Source: Chlamydiales bacterium (lineage in GTDB: Bacteria > Chlamydiota > Chlamydiia > Chlamydiales > JAAKFR01). Taken from it: a stretch of DNA of 64,000 nt. Numbering within the stretch: position 1 is the stretch's first letter; every line of letters starts with the position of its first letter. The DNA is taken from assembly GCA_022601635.1 (NCBI GenBank), contig JAJACG010000009.1, positions 6,081-70,080 of the forward strand. The letters are read 5' to 3'. This document shows, in pieces, positions 21,456-29,336 of the stretch. A program made the translations under genes and the position numbers. The notes under the pieces were generated by a model. That model had not been told where the DNA came from. It saw nothing but the letters and a program-made list of their open reading frames with translations, and did no database searches.

Positions 21456-22910
21456 TTAATTTACCAAAACATTTTTTTCTACTGTTGCGCTGGCTTTTTG
21501 TAGGATTGTTCTGCAATTGGGGCTGAGGTTTTTGAGGTAAACCTGTTTTTGGAGTTTTTGATATTTAGCCATTGTGGATTGAATGGCTTCGATGGCTGAG
21601 TGATCACAGATTTGGGAATTTCGGAAGTCGAGGTGGACGACTGGGGGGTCATTTTTGATATCGAGCAGTTCTTGAAAAGTTTTGATTGAGCCGAAGAAGA
21701 GTGGTCCATTGAAGCTATAGAGTTTTTGATTATTTTGGGTGGAGATATCGGCTTTGATGTGTTGAGATTTTTTCCATGCGAAGACGAGTGCAGAGGTGAT
21801 GACACCGAGGGCTACGCCGGTTGCTAGGTCGGTAAAGACGGTTATGGTGGAGACGAGGATAAGGACGAAGGCGTCGGATTTGGGGATTTTACGGAGGATT
21901 CGGAGGCTAGACCATTCGAAGGTGCTGATGACGACCATCATCATGACGCCTGTGAGGGCGGCGATGGGGATTTGTTCGATGAGTTTAGAGCTTACTACGA
22001 TGAAGAATAGGAGGAAGAGAGCGGCTGCGATTGAGGAGAGTCTTTTTCTTCCGCCGGATTTGACGTTGATCATACTCTGTCCGATCATAGCGCATCCGCC
22101 CATGCCCCCGAAGAGGCCGGTTATGATATTGGCGAGTCCTTGGGCTGCGCATTCTTTATTCATTTTGCCGCGTGTTTCGGTTATTTCGTCGATTAATTGC
22201 AGTGTCATGAGTGATTCGATGAGTCCTACGGCGGCTAGTGTGAGTGAGTAGGGCAGGATAATTTTTAGGGTTTCTAGGTTGAGGGGAATGATTGGGAGGT
22301 GTGGTGTGGGGAGGCCGCCTTTGATGGAGGCGAGGTCTAGGACGGATTTTGTATCGATGTGGAGTAGTTTTACGATTAGTGTGACTGTGATGATGGCGGC
22401 GAGTGATGAGGGGATAGCTTTGGTGATTTTTGGGAGTATGTAGATGATGGCCATAGTGAGTATGACGAGTGTGAGCATGGTGATGAGCTCAGTGCCATGC
22501 ATCCACTGTCCGTCGACTTTGAAGTGTGCCATTTGAGCTAGGAAGATAACGATGGCGAGTCCATTTACGAATCCGAGCATGACGGGGTATGGAACGACTC
22601 TTGCGAATTTTCCGAGTTTTAGTAGTCCTGCAAGGATTTGGATGATGCCCATGAGTATGACGGCAGCGAAGAGGTATTCGACGCCGTGTGTGGCGACGAG
22701 GGAGACCATGACGACGGCGAGAGCGCCTGTTGCGCCGGAGATCATCCCTGGTCTTCCGCCGAATATGCCTGTGATGAGACATACGAAGAATGCGGCGTAG
22801 AGTCCGACGAGTGGAGAGACGCCTGCAATGAATGCGAAGGCAACAGCTTCAGGGACGAGGGCAAGCGCTACGGTGAGTCCGGAAAGTAAGTCATTCTTGG
22901 ATCTAAACAT
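21456..22910 (-). CDS. SulP-family anion transporter with STAS domain
   Basis: ALALVPEAVAF, GGRPGMISGATG, GGCAMIGQS, GPLFFGS, DHSAIEAI. Confidence 0.9.
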   Translation of the reverse strand: MFRSKNDLLSGLTVALALVPEAVAFAFIAGVSPLVGLYAAFFVCLITGIFGGRPGMISGATGALAVVMVSLVATHGVEYLFAAVILMGIIQILAGLLKLGKFARVVPYPVMLGFVNGLAIVIFLAQMAHFKVDGQWMHGTELITMLTLVILTMAIIYILPKITKAIPSSLAAIITVTLIVKLLHIDTKSVLDLASIKGGLPTPHLPIIPLNLETLKIILPYSLTLAAVGLIESLMTLQLIDEITETRGKMNKECAAQGLANIITGLFGGMGGCAMIGQSMINVKSGGRKRLSSIAAALFLLFFIVVSSKLIEQIPIAALTGVMMMVVISTFEWSSLRILRKIPKSDAFVLILVSTITVFTDLATGVALGVITSALVFAWKKSQHIKADISTQNNQKLYSFNGPLFFGSIKTFQELLDIKNDPPVVHLDFRNSQICDHSAIEAIQSTMAKYQKLQKQVYLKNLSPNCRTILQKASATVEKNVLVN

Positions 22911-22960
22911 AGGCAGAACATACTAGTAGATTTTAGATTAATTAACAAGTGGGAATTGGT

Positions 22961-23030
22961 GGCTCTCGTGATTGCTTTGCAATCAGTGGCACTGTGTGCC
23001 ACAAGGCGGCTGTGCCGCCTTACGAGAGCC
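22961..23030. repeat. Four-way-junction (cloverleaf) palindromic element, copy 1
   Basis: GGCTCTCGT [GATTGC-TTT-GCAATC] A [GTGGCAC-TGT-GTGCCAC] [AAGGCGGC-TGT-GCCGCCTT] ACGAGAGCC; all four stems are perfectly complementary. Confidence 0.9.
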
Positions 23031-23534
23031 CTGTAGAATCTCTACTGCTTCCTCATACGTCTCTTCATGCACTACTCCATCTCCATCGTCAGAATTTGAT
23101 AGATCTATCAAAAAGTAGCGAACTGTTCCGTGATAGAGTGAAACGGCAGTGATAAAATCTTGACCTTTGTGCTTCGGATCAGAGCCATGAATGGCAAGAT
23201 CGAACCTCATTTCAATTGGTTCACTTGAAGCAAAGCAATTTCTATAGACTGGGTTGGTATTAATCATTTCAACGAGCTGATCTGACATGCGAATAATTTG
23301 CTCTCTTCCCTTTTCTACAGTCAAGACTTCATAGGTTTCAAAGGAAGCCTTAAGCACTCGAATATTATCTTTTCCGGCTCCTCCGCCAGTAACCACCACC
23401 GAGAAGTGCTCAGCTTGTTGTTCATCGGTAAATTGAGAAAGGATATCGTCTAAATGATCAGAACAAGTCTTAGGTTGGTGCTTTGCACATCCTGCTAGTA
23501 AAATCAGAAATAATAGTGTTGCTCTTGCTATCAT
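22983..23534 (-). CDS. Lipoprotein, putative immunity protein (copy 2)
   Basis: Lipobox LLAGC; shares TGGGA, SF.TY.VLTV, QD.IT.VSL.HG..RY and ETYEEAVEIL with 23701..24342; ATGA-coupled to the orphan toxin tip. Confidence 0.65.
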   Translation of the reverse strand: MIARATLLFLILLAGCAKHQPKTCSDHLDDILSQFTDEQQAEHFSVVVTGGGAGKDNIRVLKASFETYEVLTVEKGREQIIRMSDQLVEMINTNPVYRNCFASSEPIEMRFDLAIHGSDPKHKGQDFITAVSLYHGTVRYFLIDLSNSDDGDGVVHEETYEEAVEILQGSRKAAQPPCGTQCH

Positions 23535-23692
23535 TTTAAACCATCGATCCTATAGTTATACATACTTGTAATCAATTCACTCTGGTACGTAGGGCTCGTA
23601 ATCGAGTGATCAAAACCTCGCACCGATGGATGGGAATCCAACACCGTTACCGAACCCCTATTCTCCCAAAGACCCGCTCCTCCTATCAACAT
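23531..23692 (-). CDS. Orphan Rhs C-terminal tip cassette (53 aa; below the ORF-track cutoff)
   Basis: MLIGGAGLWENRGSVTVLDSHPSVRGFDHSITSPT-YQSELITSMYNYRIDGLK; residues 3-35 are identical to the Rhs C-terminal segment and the last 18 differ. Confidence 0.7.
   Translation of the reverse strand: MLIGGAGLWENRGSVTVLDSHPSVRGFDHSITSPTYQSELITSMYNYRIDGLK
23592..23687. repeat. 96-bp direct repeat of 24400..24495 (Rhs 3' segment)
   Basis: Identical by eye except one base (GAGTGATCA vs GAGTGGTCA). Confidence 0.92.
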
Positions 23693-23700
23693 AGTGAATC

Positions 23701-24342
23701 TCAATTCACTCCATTGTTCAAATAGTCAAACATAGCATCTTCAAGCGCTGAATGAAGTGTTACAGGGCTCTCGAGCTCGCATTGCGAGCGGTGGCACTGT
23801 GTGCCACAAGGCGGCGTAGCCTCCTTACGAGAGCCCCGTAGAATCTCTACTGCTTCCTCATACGTCTCAAAATGTACATTTTCAGCTGGTTGCACTTCTT
23901 TAGATAGATCCAACCTTGAATACCGAATCCTTCCATGTGAGAGTGAGACCCCTGTAATGTAATCTTGATTCTTATCACAGGGATCAGGTCCGAATATCGA
24001 TAGGCGATATCTATCGACTAGAGCATGCGGATCTGTAAAGCACTCTAGAAATGCTTGATTTGATCGTATGATATCAGTCAAGCTTTCGACTAGCTTGACT
24101 ATCTTTGCTCTTGCGGTGTCGACGGTTAGTACATCATAGGTATCAAATGAGACTGTTACCAGGTATATTTCTTCTTCCGAAGCACCACCTCCTGTGCCAA
24201 CCGCAAACAGATCATTGTCTCGCTCTTTTTTTACAAGGAGATCAACTATCTGATCTAATCGAGTATAGGGATTATCAGGCTTTTCTTTTTGCTGACACGA
24301 TGCCATACAAAAAAGTATCAGTATTCCGATAATGAATCTCAT
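23701..24342 (-). CDS. Lipoprotein, putative cognate immunity protein (copy 1)
   Basis: Lipobox MASC; ATGA overlap with the Rhs stop at 24339-24342; paralog of 22983..23534. Confidence 0.7.
   Translation of the reverse strand: MRFIIGILILFCMASCQQKEKPDNPYTRLDQIVDLLVKKERDNDLFAVGTGGGASEEEIYLVTVSFDTYDVLTVDTARAKIVKLVESLTDIIRSNQAFLECFTDPHALVDRYRLSIFGPDPCDKNQDYITGVSLSHGRIRYSRLDLSKEVQPAENVHFETYEEAVEILRGSRKEATPPCGTQCHRSQCELESPVTLHSALEDAMFDYLNNGVN
23761..23840. repeat. Four-way-junction (cloverleaf) palindromic element, copy 2
   Basis: TACAGGGCTCTCG A [GCTCGC-ATT-GCGAGC] G [GTGGCAC-TGT-GTGCCAC] [AAGGCGGC-GTA-GCCTCCTT] A CGAGAGCCCCGTA. Confidence 0.88.
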
Positions 24343-27300
24343 TTTATGCCTCTGCTCAAGTAGTCAAACATATCATCTTCAAGTCGCTTTTCAAAAGTGG
24401 GGCTCGTAATCGAGTGGTCAAAACCTCGCACCGATGGATGGGAATCCAACACCGTTACCGAACCCCTATTCTCCCAAAGACCCGCTCCTCCTATCCAAGG
24501 TATCGGATCGCGATGCGGTTTGGCCACATAATTTGTTGCACTATGACACAAATTTCTCGTAATTGGCGTCGCAGGTGCAAAAGCCGCTGTTGTAATACGA
24601 TTGCGTAAATCATCAGGCAATCTCTGCAAGGCCGCCTTGCCCTGCATCGCACCCTCACTATGTGGAATATACATCAACGTCGATCCCGCACTGCTCAGCA
24701 AACCCTCCATCGCCCCCTTCGCAACTCCCACCTGACTAAACTCACGACCCCCAACCCTCTCCAATACTACCCGTGCAAAATCACGCAGCCCACTCGACTT
24801 GTTCTCAATCATATGCACATTGTAACCACCACTTAAACGCGATAAATGCAATGCATTCTGAGTGCGAACAGCATCACTATTCCTCATCCCATTATGATAG
24901 AGAAAACTACGACCCGGTGGCATCTCTTTCACTGGATAACCCATACTCCTCAAATCAGTCACTCCTCCCACTTGTGGATTCACCCAACTCTCAGGCACCC
25001 TCGACATCAACTGCTTAGTCATATACCCAGCCGGCGTATAACCCCACATGCGACTCAATAAGCTCTGGTCCGCTAAACCATACAGATCAATATGATGCGG
25101 ATTTCCATGCACATAACCATATCTGTTCGGGCCATCATGATACCCCTCAGGATCAGGCGTCAACCAACGACCCAACTCCGGAATATAATAACGCCTCCCA
25201 AAATAGATCAAACCCGTCTCAGGATCACTCCTCTTGGAACAAAAACGCCAAGATCCATCTGTATCCCCTACACCAAATGCATCATAATCAAAACTTTGTC
25301 TCTTTTTGGAGTTAAGAAGAGTACGCACAGAGCCGCGATGATCATGCAGCGGAACAAATACCTTGTCCCCCCTCTCTATCAGCACCGCTGCCCCAATCTC
25401 AGCACCCAATCCCTCACCCAAAATGCGCAATTCATTTATCACAAGCTCATTATGAATGCAGTAGTCATGTTTCTTCGGTGTAAACCGACCAATCTCATTC
25501 TGACCATCCCACAAGAAATAACTCTTAGCCCCCTTCACATTCTTCCACAAACGACGATGAAAATTGTCATAGCCATACTGCGCAGAGGGAACCCCCACTA
25601 ATCTATTCTGCGAATCATAAACAAATCCGTGAAGCAGCATGTTCCCATTTGCATCATACTCATAAGAAGAGAGCTGCCCCAACTCATCCACCTCATAATC
25701 CGCACTCAACCTGTTCGATAATGAATCATGACAGTAATGCTTTTTATCCTCCTCAATCAACTGATCCAAGCTATCATACCGATACCGACGACTATTCTCA
25801 GAAAGTACGTTGCCACTTGCATCATAACTATATCTCAAATCTAGCGAAGGGGCCGAAATATGGAGCGGCCTGCCCAATGCATCGCGCTCAATCTCTAAAC
25901 GGCCAAAACCATGCATCAGATGACAGCCCGTTATCAATCCATCCTCAGCACGCTCATATATATGCTTCTGACCATTGCGCGTTACCGACTTCAAATAAGC
26001 CCCCATATAAGTATAGGTAACCTCACTCTTGTCCGGTAAAATTAACTTTGTGCGCTGACCATCACTATTATATGACGATCTAAAACAGGCACCATTGCCC
26101 AAACACTCCTCAACCATCTCACCATGCACATTAAAGCTGCGCTTCGTCTTCATACCCAAGCAGCGATCCTCCACCAGAGTCATATTGTCCGCAGCATCAT
26201 AGCTGTAGTTATAGTCAAAATCAGCGCCGCGGTAACGTGATACCCGACCAAATTCATCATATTCATAGTGGTGAAGATCCCCTGAGGGTAACTCCACTCT
26301 TTGTAAACGGCCCATTTTGTCATATGACCTAGATGTTCTACGCCTGCCAGCCTCAAGCAACCACTCCACTCGATCGCCTGGACCATAGCCATACTCATGA
26401 CAGACAGCGCCGCGAGATCTACCATTCACATAGATCGAATCCTCACGCCTCACACAGTTACCCCTTCCATCATACGCCTTCTTTGTCATGGAACATTTGC
26501 GCCCAGATGGATCGGTCTTATAAATCAAAGAGACTCTATCGCAGCTGTCATACTCCATATGCGTCGTCACACCAGAGGGAAGCCTCTTTGCCACAAGCAA
26601 GCCATTGCGATAGCTACTCTCAGTGCACTGACCCAACTGGTCCACCTCCATAATCAACTGCCCCTGACCATTGTAAAAACGCTCAAAAATCCCCCTCGAA
26701 CTCTCCTCCCATATCAAACGCCCACACTCATCAAATCGATAGCTCACCTCATTCCAAGCTCGATCATGCGCCACCCTCTTCTTTCTCACGACTCGATCTA
26801 AATTGTCATACTCAAAAACATAGACAGAGTCCCCAGCAACCCTGTGCGAAAGACGACCACGCGCATCATAGTAGAAAAAGGCGCGCCTCCCCCCCTTAGT
26901 TTCCTCAACTTTCTGCCCCAAGATGTTATAAACATAACTGCTCTTTATACCACTAAACTCCTCCTCCTCAATCAAGAGAGGACCCTCATAAACAGCATGA
27001 TAGCGCCGATCACCCTGACTCTTGGAAATCAGCTGGTCACAAATATTGTAACTGTAAGTTGTCTCCATACCATGACGATCCGTTGAGGAAATCAAACGAC
27101 CATACTCATCATATACAAAGCTTTCACATCCACCATCTGGATGCTTTACCTCAACTGGTAATGAACGCTCATTATACTCTGTAGAAGTAACAAACCCATT
27201 GCGATCACGACGCTTCACTACATTGCCCAATGGATCATATTCTAAACTCTCAAACGTACCATCAGCGTAGTCAGTCCGAAATAGACGCCCCGAAGCGTCA

Positions 27301-29336
27301 TAGCTATACAACTCCTTATAACCACTTGGCTTCGTCATACTAATCAACTGACCAGCAGGATTATAGCTTTTATAGGTCACTAAATCTCCATCATGCACCT
27401 CAATCGGCCTATTCGCAGCATCATAAATTGTGATAATTTGCTGATTACCCAGCACCTTCTCAATTTGATTGCCTCGATCATCATAGCTGTAACGCGTCTC
27501 ATTACCCTCAGCATCAATAGTAAGAATCAGGTTTTCCTTCTCATCATACTCATTCGATATGGTGTAGCATAAAGAGCCATGGGCATCATAGTGCCGTTCA
27601 CTGGAAATTTTGCCGGCTGGTGTGTACAAGTAGACTCTTTTCTGGATCAGACTTTCCTCTTCATCAAACTCCTCAACAACCTCAGGTAAACCGTAATTTG
27701 GGAGTGTGCGCCGCGGCTGAATCTTTTTGATGCGTCTATGTTTCCCGTCAAAATGCTCCGTACGAATCAAACAAGCCGCATAATCATATCTGTTTTTGGT
27801 CCAACTCAACTCCTTTGCTCCATCAAACAGCGCCTCATAGGTAATGAGGTCACGGTTATCCTCATACTCATAGATAGTGCGCTTTGCTCCCTCACGCCTC
27901 TCAATGATGCGGTTGTTATCATCAAACTCGCGAAAAATCGTTGTCCCAGCAAAGCTCTCTTCAATACGGTTGTGATGCACATCATATTTATAGGTTGTCT
28001 TTGAAAGCTCACACCCACCTTTGTCACAAATACTCTTAGAAAGAAGATCTCCAAGCTCACTCCACTTACTCTTGTGAATGGCATCAGCTGTTTCGACCTC
28101 ATAGACGCGCTTGTTCTTGTCATAACGGTAGATCGTATGATTGCCAGCTCCATCTGTCACAACTGTATAGCCATGCCCATAAACATAGCTCGCTACAATC
28201 ATATCACCAGGACCATAGATTCTTTCAACACGACGCCCCGCTCCATATTCAATGCGAATAGGCATGCCATCTTCCGTCACAGAGCGCTCCAAAAGAGCAT
28301 ACTTCTTGTAATGAGCTAGCTTTTTCTGCGGCTTTAAGCCCTTTTTGTTCTTCCAGCCATATTGATAGCTCTGATCTGCACCATCTGGACGTTCAACAGA
28401 AGAGAGTAGAAGATCAAAGATATAGGGATGCTTTCTCTTGCTATTCTTCTCAATCACTGTGCGCAATTCCAGCTCATAGCTAGCTATTCTTCCATCGCTG
28501 CCAGAAATCACAACCTGCTTCGAAATGTGATTGTTCTTTGGTCCCATTCTTTTGGGATATTTGATGCTGATTTCACCAAGCTTAACTCGCATCGAACTAT
28601 CAACCGCTACAATGTGTGAAAGAACATAATAGGCTGGATCAGATGTATGGTTATGCGCATAGTCCAAGTATTGGTAGAAAAGGTAATTTCCATTAGGCAA
28701 TCTCTCCCTTTTTACCTTGGCCATAAATGGCGGCGGCAGTCTCGTCTGCATCGCACGTGCAATTGGATCCACTTCAATTGCAGGCCACGCTTTATACTCA
28801 CTCTCATAGCTAATTTTAGTGCCATCACCTCTTTTGATCTCGCCAGAAAAGATGAAATAGGGCTCTGGACTACTCCTGTCCCACTCCACAACAGTGTTGG
28901 CAGGATGCCTTCCCCCACTGATCTCTCTATGCACATAACTCTTTGCATCTAGGAGTTCTATCCGATCGTTTTTCTTCCAATGCTCGAAGCGGTAAAAGCC
29001 ACCATCAGCAGTTCCATGGCCTACGAAGGGTTCAATCTCTGAAGAACAGAGACTAAATAGTACAAGCGATTCAGGATTCACGCTCCAGTGGCCATTTGCT
29101 AAATCACCATCACAAAAATGGCCATAGAAGCGCCTATATGAAATTGGCTGTACACCCGAAACAACCAGGTCGGTCTGCACTTCGCAATACTCACCTGTAA
29201 TCGGATTCACATTGAAAGGAAGCGCTGTGCGAAAATCGGCATCCGTCCGCCTCATGTAAGTCTCATTGTTGGAATAGAGCGAAACATCATTTGCGGAGAA
29301 AAGCGGAAGAGAGAGTAGTAGGAAAAATATAAACAT
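24339..29336 (-). CDS. Rhs/YD-repeat polymorphic toxin with Sec-type signal peptide and alpha/beta-hydrolase-like C-terminal domain
   Basis: VNPITGEY (DUF6531-like), many YD repeats, Rhs core SDPETGLIYFGRRYYIPELGRWLTPDP...NRYGYVHGNP..IDLYGL; tip has PHSEGA, DPIP and DHS. Confidence 0.9.
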   Translation of the reverse strand: MFIFFLLLSLPLFSANDVSLYSNNETYMRRTDADFRTALPFNVNPITGEYCEVQTDLVVSGVQPISYRRFYGHFCDGDLANGHWSVNPESLVLFSLCSSEIEPFVGHGTADGGFYRFEHWKKNDRIELLDAKSYVHREISGGRHPANTVVEWDRSSPEPYFIFSGEIKRGDGTKISYESEYKAWPAIEVDPIARAMQTRLPPPFMAKVKRERLPNGNYLFYQYLDYAHNHTSDPAYYVLSHIVAVDSSMRVKLGEISIKYPKRMGPKNNHISKQVVISGSDGRIASYELELRTVIEKNSKRKHPYIFDLLLSSVERPDGADQSYQYGWKNKKGLKPQKKLAHYKKYALLERSVTEDGMPIRIEYGAGRRVERIYGPGDMIVASYVYGHGYTVVTDGAGNHTIYRYDKNKRVYEVETADAIHKSKWSELGDLLSKSICDKGGCELSKTTYKYDVHHNRIEESFAGTTIFREFDDNNRIIERREGAKRTIYEYEDNRDLITYEALFDGAKELSWTKNRYDYAACLIRTEHFDGKHRRIKKIQPRRTLPNYGLPEVVEEFDEEESLIQKRVYLYTPAGKISSERHYDAHGSLCYTISNEYDEKENLILTIDAEGNETRYSYDDRGNQIEKVLGNQQIITIYDAANRPIEVHDGDLVTYKSYNPAGQLISMTKPSGYKELYSYDASGRLFRTDYADGTFESLEYDPLGNVVKRRDRNGFVTSTEYNERSLPVEVKHPDGGCESFVYDEYGRLISSTDRHGMETTYSYNICDQLISKSQGDRRYHAVYEGPLLIEEEEFSGIKSSYVYNILGQKVEETKGGRRAFFYYDARGRLSHRVAGDSVYVFEYDNLDRVVRKKRVAHDRAWNEVSYRFDECGRLIWEESSRGIFERFYNGQGQLIMEVDQLGQCTESSYRNGLLVAKRLPSGVTTHMEYDSCDRVSLIYKTDPSGRKCSMTKKAYDGRGNCVRREDSIYVNGRSRGAVCHEYGYGPGDRVEWLLEAGRRRTSRSYDKMGRLQRVELPSGDLHHYEYDEFGRVSRYRGADFDYNYSYDAADNMTLVEDRCLGMKTKRSFNVHGEMVEECLGNGACFRSSYNSDGQRTKLILPDKSEVTYTYMGAYLKSVTRNGQKHIYERAEDGLITGCHLMHGFGRLEIERDALGRPLHISAPSLDLRYSYDASGNVLSENSRRYRYDSLDQLIEEDKKHYCHDSLSNRLSADYEVDELGQLSSYEYDANGNMLLHGFVYDSQNRLVGVPSAQYGYDNFHRRLWKNVKGAKSYFLWDGQNEIGRFTPKKHDYCIHNELVINELRILGEGLGAEIGAAVLIERGDKVFVPLHDHRGSVRTLLNSKKRQSFDYDAFGVGDTDGSWRFCSKRSDPETGLIYFGRRYYIPELGRWLTPDPEGYHDGPNRYGYVHGNPHHIDLYGLADQSLLSRMWGYTPAGYMTKQLMSRVPESWVNPQVGGVTDLRSMGYPVKEMPPGRSFLYHNGMRNSDAVRTQNALHLSRLSGGYNVHMIENKSSGLRDFARVVLERVGGREFSQVGVAKGAMEGLLSSAGSTLMYIPHSEGAMQGKAALQRLPDDLRNRITTAAFAPATPITRNLCHSATNYVAKPHRDPIPWIGGAGLWENRGSVTVLDSHPSVRGFDHSITSPTFEKRLEDDMFDYLSRGIK

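Follow-up and report, generated by a model that had tools for sequence, protein, structure and literature searches.

Organization of the locus

The 64,000-nt stretch of a Chlamydiales genome analysed here (the window) carries a gene for an Rhs polymorphic toxin followed by a miniature orphan cassette, in which a short open reading frame (ORF) that repeats the end of the toxin, hereafter the stub, is coupled to a second lipoprotein gene. The window's own genome (G000) is a 1.64-Mb assembly of 33 contigs built from metagenomic data. All coordinates are positions within the window and all features of the locus lie on the minus strand, where the order of genes is Rhs (29336..24339), lipo1 (24342..23701), stub (23704..23531) and lipo2 (23534..22983). 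Successive genes overlap by four nucleotides: ATGA for the Rhs stop and lipo1 start (24342-24339), TTGA for the lipo1 stop and the TTG start of the stub, and again ATGA for the stub stop and lipo2 start (23534-23531). The features of the locus are:

24339..29336, minus strand: main Rhs polymorphic toxin gene, 1665 amino acids (aa) (ORF list; Pfam RHS_repeat)
24342..25073, minus strand: C-terminal toxin domain, 244 aa (AlphaFold2 (AF2) model, Foldseek, structural alignment, conserved columns)
24397..24495, minus strand: repeat copy a, within the main toxin gene, encoding IGGAGLWENRGSVTVLDSHPSVRGFDHSITSP(T) (repeat search, blastn)
24342..24395, minus strand: tip 1, final 18 codons (FEKRLEDDMFDYLSRGIK), forming most of the terminal helix (225-240 in the model)
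23701..24342, minus strand: lipo1, candidate cognate immunity lipoprotein, 213 aa (ORF, family alignment, AF2 model)
23766..23877, minus strand: conserved 3′ block copy a, lipoprotein coding end (ETYEEAVEIL...PPCGTQCH), running past the position of the lipo2 stop
23775..23789, minus strand: hairpin copy a, 6 bp, GCTCGC-AAT-GCGAGC, directly past the end of the lipoprotein core
23691..23745, minus strand: scar, a second, diverged junction of tip 1 end and lipoprotein start (..ALEDAMFDYLNNGVN* / MRFTM), abutting repeat copy b
23531..23704, minus strand: orphan stub ORF, 57 codons, with a TTG start overlapping the lipo1 stop
23589..23687, minus strand: repeat copy b, within the stub (repeat search, blastn)
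23534..23587, minus strand: tip 2, 18 codons (YQSELITSMYNYRIDGLK), 5/18 identical to tip 1
22983..23534, minus strand: lipo2, orphan lipoprotein paralogue, 183 aa, 43% identical to lipo1
22961..23072, minus strand: conserved 3′ block copy b, the lipo2 end and 22 nt past its stop
22970..22984, minus strand: hairpin copy b, after lipo2, GATTGC-AAA-GCAATC

Two conserved blocks frame a variable toxin tip and lipoprotein body

The initial annotation had described a near-identical repeat of 96 nt joining the Rhs 3′ end and the stub; its two copies do lie 808 nt apart, start to start, but each measures 99 nt (23589-23687 and 24397-24495). They agree at 97/99 positions (97.98% over 99 nt by blastn), share a perfectly identical core of 78 nt, and are the only two copies in the whole assembly when the locus is searched by blastn. 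Both encode IGGAGLWENRGSVTVLDSHPSVRGFDHSITSPT in the same frame. The Rhs protein then passes from ...GFDHSITSPT into FEKRLEDDMFDYLSRGIK, while the stub consists of 38 residues identical to Rhs 1610-1647 (IGGAG...SPT) followed by YQSELITSMYNYRIDGLK. In 30-nt windows, identity between the two units runs at 100, 100 and 96%, drops to 33-66% through the tip and lipoprotein body (about 50% directly after the pre-tip block), and returns to 96, 86 and 80%. ORFs, overlaps and the 43% identity of the lipoproteins bear out that each repeat copy leads into a different tip, ATGA-coupled to a different lipoprotein paralogue. Several positions encoded by the repeat are highly variable in the toxin family, with an entropy of about 3 bits at 207, 208, 210, 216 and 217 (residues 62-244 are numbered here as in the C-terminal domain); the identity of the two copies therefore points to recent common descent or gene conversion rather than to purifying selection.

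The rise in identity at the far end corresponds to a second block, which the initial annotation had left unmentioned. The last ~100 nt of both lipoprotein genes, with the sequence past the lipo2 stop, are 86-88% identical (112 nt at 86% in the repeat search, 103 nt at 88% by blastn), so that the variable part, tip plus lipoprotein body, is framed on both sides.

The stub was rightly described as far smaller than the usual Rhs orphans. Its alignment is confined to positions 213-257 of the 269-position domain profile, and it has neither Ser139 nor Asp189 of the catalytic triad described below, no Rhs core and no whole toxin domain.

Each 3′ block also holds a short hairpin; the two copies differ at two base pairs, changed on both arms, and no T-run follows either. 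A reading of this post-lipoprotein hairpin as a general cassette-end, attC-like element was dropped, as no matching hairpin occurs in the arrays of four related genomes (G001, G019, G023 and G025). No terminator-like site was found on the minus strand within 22700-24700, and a promoter and terminator scan of the locus gave nothing exceeding chance.

The duplication is present in sponge metagenomes

Three sponge-metagenome runs (X1, X2 and X3) from one study, possibly the source sample, hold all four distinct flanks of the repeat in Logan contigs at 99-100% identity, and the 78-nt unitig common to both copies is about 2-3 times as deep as its neighbours in X1 and X2, the two runs that list it. 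Because every distinct flank is present and the shared core is at raised depth, the repeat is no assembly artefact, a doubt that the initial annotation had itself raised. A false duplication, arising from mis-joined alleles of two strains in the metagenome-assembled genome (MAG), might be suspected in a metagenomic assembly of 33 contigs whose Rhs loci elsewhere in the genome break contigs. Yet besides the four flanks in three runs and the raised depth of the core in X1 and X2, the scar upstream of copy b ties that copy physically to the lipo1 3′ end (contig pieces 23658-23867), and the same layout has been assembled independently in other genomes, which leaves this explanation highly improbable.

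Depths differ among the tip1-lipo1, tip2-lipo2 and Rhs pieces (134.8, 250.7 and 177.9, respectively, in X3), but inconsistently from run to run, and are not interpretable. Run X3 also lists no contig over 24310-24465 (tip 1 and the lipo1 start), and one of its unitigs spans lipo2 through the entire repeat copy b; the gap may reflect filtering or strain variation and is not interpretable from contigs.

The main toxin ends in a predicted α/β hydrolase

The Rhs protein has an N-terminal hydrophobic, signal-like (Sec-type) leader, as read by eye, and six stretches matching PF05593 (RHS_repeat, E 4.9e-56), which the genome search also recovered. Its core ends at aa 1421 (...DPEGYHDGPNRYGYVHGNPHHIDLYGL / ...HIDLYGL), with the 244-aa domain behind it; we take DPEGYHDGPNRYGYVHGNPHHIDLYGL to be the PxxxxDPxGL-type motif that bounds the variable C-terminal toxin domain. 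Sequence searches with the domain gave no hit among PDB sequences at E<=10, no match in NCBIfam, and, for the window's own domain, no match in Pfam including PF05095 (DUF687) at E<=0.1. An exhaustive search of representatives returned 710 homologues at E<=1e-3, at no more than 38% identity, and many form the C-terminus of proteins of ~1700-1900 aa; PF05095 is matched by 29/51 aligned homologues (best 4.7e-18), and one Rhs relative carries that annotation.

In the 51-sequence alignment, G62, S139 and D189 are invariant and H220, the His of FDHS, is kept in 50/51. The conserved columns thus give a Ser-Asp-His triad, S139/D189/H220, in canonical order, with the Ser in a nucleophile-elbow motif, H-S-E-G (family consensus CHSQG); together with the hydrolase fold of the model, this upholds the earlier proposal of a putative catalytic His in FDHS. 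The AF2 model (predicted local distance difference test, pLDDT, 88.9) is an α/β hydrolase, for which Foldseek gives 461 matches at E<=0.001, the top-listed ones being esterases, cutinases and other serine hydrolases, and which aligns with carboxylesterase 1auo_A at Z 13.5 (root-mean-square deviation 3.4, 180 aligned). The domain, basic with an isoelectric point (pI) of 9.5, is on this modelling an α/β hydrolase, related to DUF687 and probably an esterase or lipase. The tip makes up most of the terminal helix (residues 225-240, pLDDT ~98), which structural alignments, extending through residue 240, match to the final helix of the fold in solved proteins.

Many database homologues of the toxin domain are short stand-alone proteins. 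The window's own genome also encodes such a homologue (C4:60521-61276, L003), of 252 aa, with its own signal-like leader and no Rhs part.

The coupled lipoproteins are candidate immunity proteins

Both lipo1 and lipo2 show lipoprotein-type signal sequences by eye (..FCMASC and ..LLAGC), and the mature proteins are acidic (pI 4.9-5.0). A jackhmmer search over all fetched loci places them in a family of 57 distinct ORFs shorter than 260 aa. In these loci, 32 distinct toxin or stub ends are followed by an ORF of 120-259 aa beginning at most 60 nt from the toxin stop. The AF2 model of lipo1 (pLDDT 86.2, with a low-confidence tail) has no Foldseek match at E<=0.001, and its best structural Z, 7.6, leads to no clear solved fold; neither lipoprotein matches NCBIfam, and a protein search with lipo1 returned nothing besides the window's own protein. 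From its place next to the toxin, we infer that the Rhs-coupled lipoprotein is most likely the immunity protein.

The stub-plus-lipoprotein layout recurs in related genomes

A query with the whole toxin domain matches 28/41 related genomes, and a 56-position model of the C-terminal end matches 22/29 genomes of the family. Stubs with short frames (<=75 aa) occur in five genomes (G000, G001, G019, G023 and G041). The clearest array is that of G001, from the same genus, where the main Rhs gene is followed by three cassettes at an exact 691-bp period, in each of which a stub of 49 codons encodes ..VLLKSKT..DHSFQSPTY, then a 19-residue tip that differs between cassettes, and overlaps a lipoprotein gene. 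G023 has the order Rhs-lipoprotein-stub(49 aa)-lipoprotein, with the pre-tip 16/16 and the tip 8/18 identical; in G025, from another family of the order, a 450-aa toxin has a toxin fragment and lipoprotein on its upstream side (pre-tip 16/16, tip 11/17); and the array of G019 combines a fragment of 102 aa with a stub of 75 aa, which shares 16/18 tip residues with the main gene.

In G000, G001, G023 and G025, near-identity gives way to divergence at one and the same structural point, directly after the DH..SPTY-type motif. Between the units of G001, the His-motif block is 90-96% identical, the lipoprotein 3′ end is 80-100% identical in 5/6 unit pairs, and the region between the blocks is a block-wise mosaic across the four units, including variable tips and lipoprotein segments. 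In all four short stubs of G000 (one) and G001 (three), the frame stays open across the tip, and its stop codon overlaps or abuts the start of the lipoprotein gene. The stub-plus-lipoprotein layout is therefore no one-off, and the micro-cassette is real. What the initial annotation had presented as a swap unit thus holds insofar as a cassette of tip and lipoprotein recurs in relatives; its 5′ edge turned out to be a scar (see below), and the 3′ block has to be added to it.

About 570 bp past the last cassette of G001 (G001:C3, L037) lies a 383-aa ORF that looks transposase-like by eye, with more lipoprotein-family paralogues beyond. In the window's own genome, which encodes RecA, Rhs repeats occur on four contigs and further toxin/lipoprotein pairs lie elsewhere. 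A second orphan array stands at the start of another contig (C12:1-3600; L004, L006, L012, L013), with lipoprotein genes or fragments interleaved with toxin fragments of 105 and 140 aa; these begin near the nucleophile Ser, their pre-tip is 83% identical and their tips agree at 3/18 positions. The SecY relatives of this genome belong to MAGs labelled Chlamydiales (best 91-92% identical), and DNA of the locus is present in sponge metagenomes. The T6SS (type VI secretion system) sheath gene TssC/VipB (PF05943), the sole T6SS marker searched, gave no match in the genome, which is 97.7% complete. On that single marker and the Sec-type leader, the toxin would not be a T6SS-delivered lipase effector of the Tle type with Tli immunity.

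The tip is a hot spot of divergence

Variation at the tip is also seen between intact toxins. G016 carries two intact full-length Rhs paralogues of about 94% DNA identity, which differ at 10/18 positions of the tip against 16/227 in the remaining toxin domain (Fisher p 7.8e-7); their lipoproteins are identical at 126/175 positions, and most of the differences fall in the C-terminal half rather than beside the tip. Likewise, the toxin domains of G020 (L043) and G002 (L044) are 90% identical over 200 residues, with tips identical at 8/17. Across the family the terminal helix is periodic, with 227, 231, 235, 238 and 239 conserved and other positions highly variable. These sequence comparisons mark the tip as a hypervariable hot spot of divergence. 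Both tips of the window keep 227 (aromatic), 231, 235 and 238, whereas residue 239 is L in tip 1 and R in tip 2; as four conserved helix positions are kept in tip 2, a swapped tip should still fit the fold.

L043 and L044 lie in genomes of different genera, and their 90% identity across genera suggests horizontal transfer of the toxin module.

The initial annotation went further and proposed that the terminal helix sets immunity specificity. Under such a switch, the exposed face of the helix would determine which immunity protein works, and stub plus lipoprotein would form a silent cassette for a one-crossover change of type, much as pilS silent cassettes feed pilE. Several observations are in keeping with this. 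By the anatomy of the locus, a toxin formed by crossover would differ in the tip alone while lipo1 is lost, and survival would require lipo2 to handle the toxin core with tip 2. Of the five conserved helix positions the two tips share four, their differences falling at 239 and at variable, presumably exposed positions; the hot spot is found in the intact paralogues of G016, whose lipoproteins also diverge; and all four short stubs are open through the tip to the lipoprotein start. However, tip and lipoprotein identities fail to track each other in G001, where the main gene and cassette C (A-C) have tips 39% and lipoproteins 98% identical while cassettes C and D have tips 89% and lipoproteins 69% identical, and G023 shows the same disparity (tip 44%, lipoprotein 84%). 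Moreover, being the canonical last helix of the α/β-hydrolase fold, the helix is partly a core element. The proposal was thus not borne out, and we consider a specificity switch unlikely; the mismatch within arrays is in itself not decisive either way, because recombination inside silent cassettes could create mismatches without cost.

A deletion scar at the 5′ edge of the stub

Between the lipo1 body and the stub lies a diverged copy of 24329-24383, i.e., of the tip 1 end and lipo1 start (55 nt at 82%; 60 nt at 81.7% by blastn). It follows that the 5′ edge of the stub is the scar of an illegitimate deletion that joined the remnant of a lipoprotein start codon to toxin sequence, not a designed cassette edge, and that the apparent start codon of the stub is the mutated start of a lost lipoprotein gene. 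The scar shows decay, too, to be shaping the array. The lipo1 gene is in turn without its original stop, which is TGA in lipo2 and CGC in lipo1, and reads through in frame for 29 extra codons into the remnant (23701-23790, minus strand). The resulting lipo1 tail resembles the toxin's own tip 1 (ALEDAMFDYLNNGVN and RLEDDMFDYLSRGIK, respectively) and is modelled as a low-confidence helix; this copy of the toxin's last helix on the immunity candidate is probably accidental.

The scar also bears on a third explanation, in which the stub is a passive remnant: an older toxin/immunity pair was displaced and eroded, the orphan immunity gene survived with the few codons needed to hand over ribosomes, and the tip is passenger DNA that takes part in no switching. 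The scar testifies to at least one illegitimate deletion and to the loss of an intermediate cassette (a tip-1-like end plus lipoprotein start) directly upstream of the stub; stub lengths vary among genomes (49, 57, 75 and 102-140 aa); through its 4-nt overlaps, the stub could plausibly serve as a translational bridge; and displacement with retention of immunity genes is the array model outlined in PMC5361080. In G041 (C24:4123-5472), Rhs N-terminal fragments run straight into a 71-aa toxin stub, which here follows no lipoprotein and is itself followed by a lipoprotein-like gene, and this fusion would amount to a large internal deletion. Erosion nevertheless leaves unexplained why 97/99 identity is confined to the pre-tip block and falls to about 50% directly after it, why G001 combines an exact 691-bp period with a block-wise mosaic, and why the tip is a hot spot between two intact full-length genes, so that we hold it to be quite improbable as the whole account.

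On its own, the G041 locus (L070) looks like a large internal deletion of the Rhs gene.

A probable miniature recombination-cassette system

We favour, with moderate confidence, the reading of the locus as a recombination-cassette system, i.e., a miniature Rhs C-terminal displacement or orphan array bounded by two conserved blocks, a reading that makes no claim on specificity. In it, an Rhs protein of a sponge-associated environmental chlamydia, bearing a Sec signal, would carry a hydrolase toxin translationally coupled to an immunity lipoprotein, with a miniature orphan cassette downstream that holds the last 57 toxin codons and a second, diverged lipoprotein gene. The two framing blocks would be the ~100 nt encoding the catalytic-His motif before the last helix and the ~100 nt at the 3′ end of the lipoprotein gene, and recombination at them—displacement by incoming alleles, unequal crossing-over or gene conversion—would build, shuffle and delete cassettes. 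Since this upstream anchor sits behind the catalytic His, the terminal helix would travel with the immunity gene as a separately exchangeable unit, the remaining toxin staying constant. A RecA crossover within the 99-nt repeat would delete 808 bp and leave Rhs-tip2 with lipo2; as regards the layout, the outcome foreseen in the initial annotation holds, since the repeats are in the same frame and the product is a full-length Rhs with tip 2 followed by lipo2 alone. The orphan lipo2 would probably supply extra immunity, and it could be translated by way of the successive 4-nt overlaps (Rhs > lipo1 > stub > lipo2).

Several points weigh against this reading. The 99-nt repeat is short next to the 522-bp homology used in Salmonella according to PMC3967940. 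No joint of the 808-bp deletion was found in Logan contigs over 22400-25400, although 31-mer contigs collapse the 78-nt core and cannot show the deleted form. An exact scan of the metagenome contigs for a tip-2 31-mer gave 0 hits, and no full-length toxin with tip 2 turned up in that scan or in the protein searches, whose collections may omit records of the window's own genome; a word-based search for Rhs-length proteins carrying the toxin C-terminal domain gave three matches at 32-35% identity, and across the protein searches nothing came closer than 33-38%. A protein scan found lipo2 relatives in five loci, at best 27-30% identical and none of them close. Tip and core are equally conserved in the clade L053/L065/L067. 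That the lipoprotein confers immunity is read from its gene context, its fold matching nothing clearly, and the illegitimate-deletion scar at the stub 5′ edge fits decay as well as design.

Relation to known orphan arrays

As described in PMC3967940, the rhs-CT orphan of Salmonella LT2 has no export signals of its own and is linked to its own immunity gene, and recombination within the sequence common to both would attach this orphan to the main gene, with loss of the main gene's immunity partner. The window offers a close likeness: a downstream fragment that shares sequence with the main gene, has no 5′ region of its own and comes with its own immunity-gene candidate (PMC3967940). The scale differs, however. 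In Salmonella the shared stretch is 522 bp (95%) of the Rhs core and the orphan holds a whole alternative toxin domain (PMC3967940), whereas here it is 99 nt inside the toxin domain and, after all catalytic residues, the last 18 residues alone differ. T6SS clusters of Vibrio cholerae contain arrays of orphan immunity genes downstream of one effector, thought to stem from displaced effectors whose immunity gene was kept (PMC5361080); in contrast, each orphan here retains a defined in-frame 3′ piece of the toxin with the conserved pre-tip block, and G001 has an exact 691-bp tandem period.

The arrangement of the blocks recalls the immunity paralogues of type VII secretion systems (esaG, tipC), described in PMC9484751 as non-identical tandem genes with conserved end blocks, in which recombination leads to loss, expansion and mosaics. 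Two blocks likewise flank variable paralogues in the window, and the four G001 units form a block-wise mosaic. Unlike in esaG and tipC, the 5′ block lies in the end of the toxin gene and not in the immunity gene, so that recombination would also exchange part of the toxin. More generally, Zhang et al. 2012 (PMC3482391) describe polymorphic toxins as a constant 5′ body with a variable 3′ end, exchanged as cassettes of toxin-immunity pairs that one recombination brings in together; their account includes lipid-targeting α/β-hydrolase toxin domains and lists several toxin and immunity families as present in chlamydiae, among others. The cassettes of that account are whole toxin domains, while the variable unit here is one helix of a domain. 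On these published descriptions, the locus would be a miniature variant of known Rhs C-terminal displacement or orphan arrays (PMC3967940, PMC5361080, PMC3482391). Literature searches, made in an incomplete library and not aimed at that exact question, returned no account of orphan cassettes confined to the final helix of a toxin domain.

DUF687 (PF05095) is known as a chlamydial family found in putative inclusion-membrane proteins (PMC3048545, PMC11878206); PMC11878206 classes it as α/β-hydrolase-like and describes it as without catalytic residues. The Rhs-linked homologues examined here differ from that description in keeping Ser-Asp-His, with Ser and Asp invariant and His in 50/51, and the Rhs-linked form has none of the helices described for the family. 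Active toxin domains may have been the ancestors of the inclusion-membrane DUF687 proteins in pathogenic chlamydiae.

Implications for toxin diversification in environmental chlamydiae

Orphan toxin cassettes are normally viewed as whole domains on a conserved delivery scaffold, whereas the exchangeable unit here starts after the last catalytic residue. Either one helix suffices to change the working immunity protein, or immunity genes exchange under an unchanged toxin. The first option, if true, would define a very small, testable specificity determinant, and the second would inform on the breadth of these immunity proteins. A doubtful extension of the first is that the last helix is a self-contained, exchangeable specificity module and that environmental chlamydiae carry arrays of silent "helix plus immunity" micro-cassettes, switched by single crossovers through the ~100-nt His-motif block; if so, polymorphic toxins would diversify at one secondary-structure element and not by whole domains. 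As judged from conserved residues, the chlamydial family DUF687 appears linked to toxin domains with intact catalytic residues, and obligate-intracellular-type bacteria of ~1.6 Mb would seem to keep several Rhs loci with actively shuffled cassette arrays.

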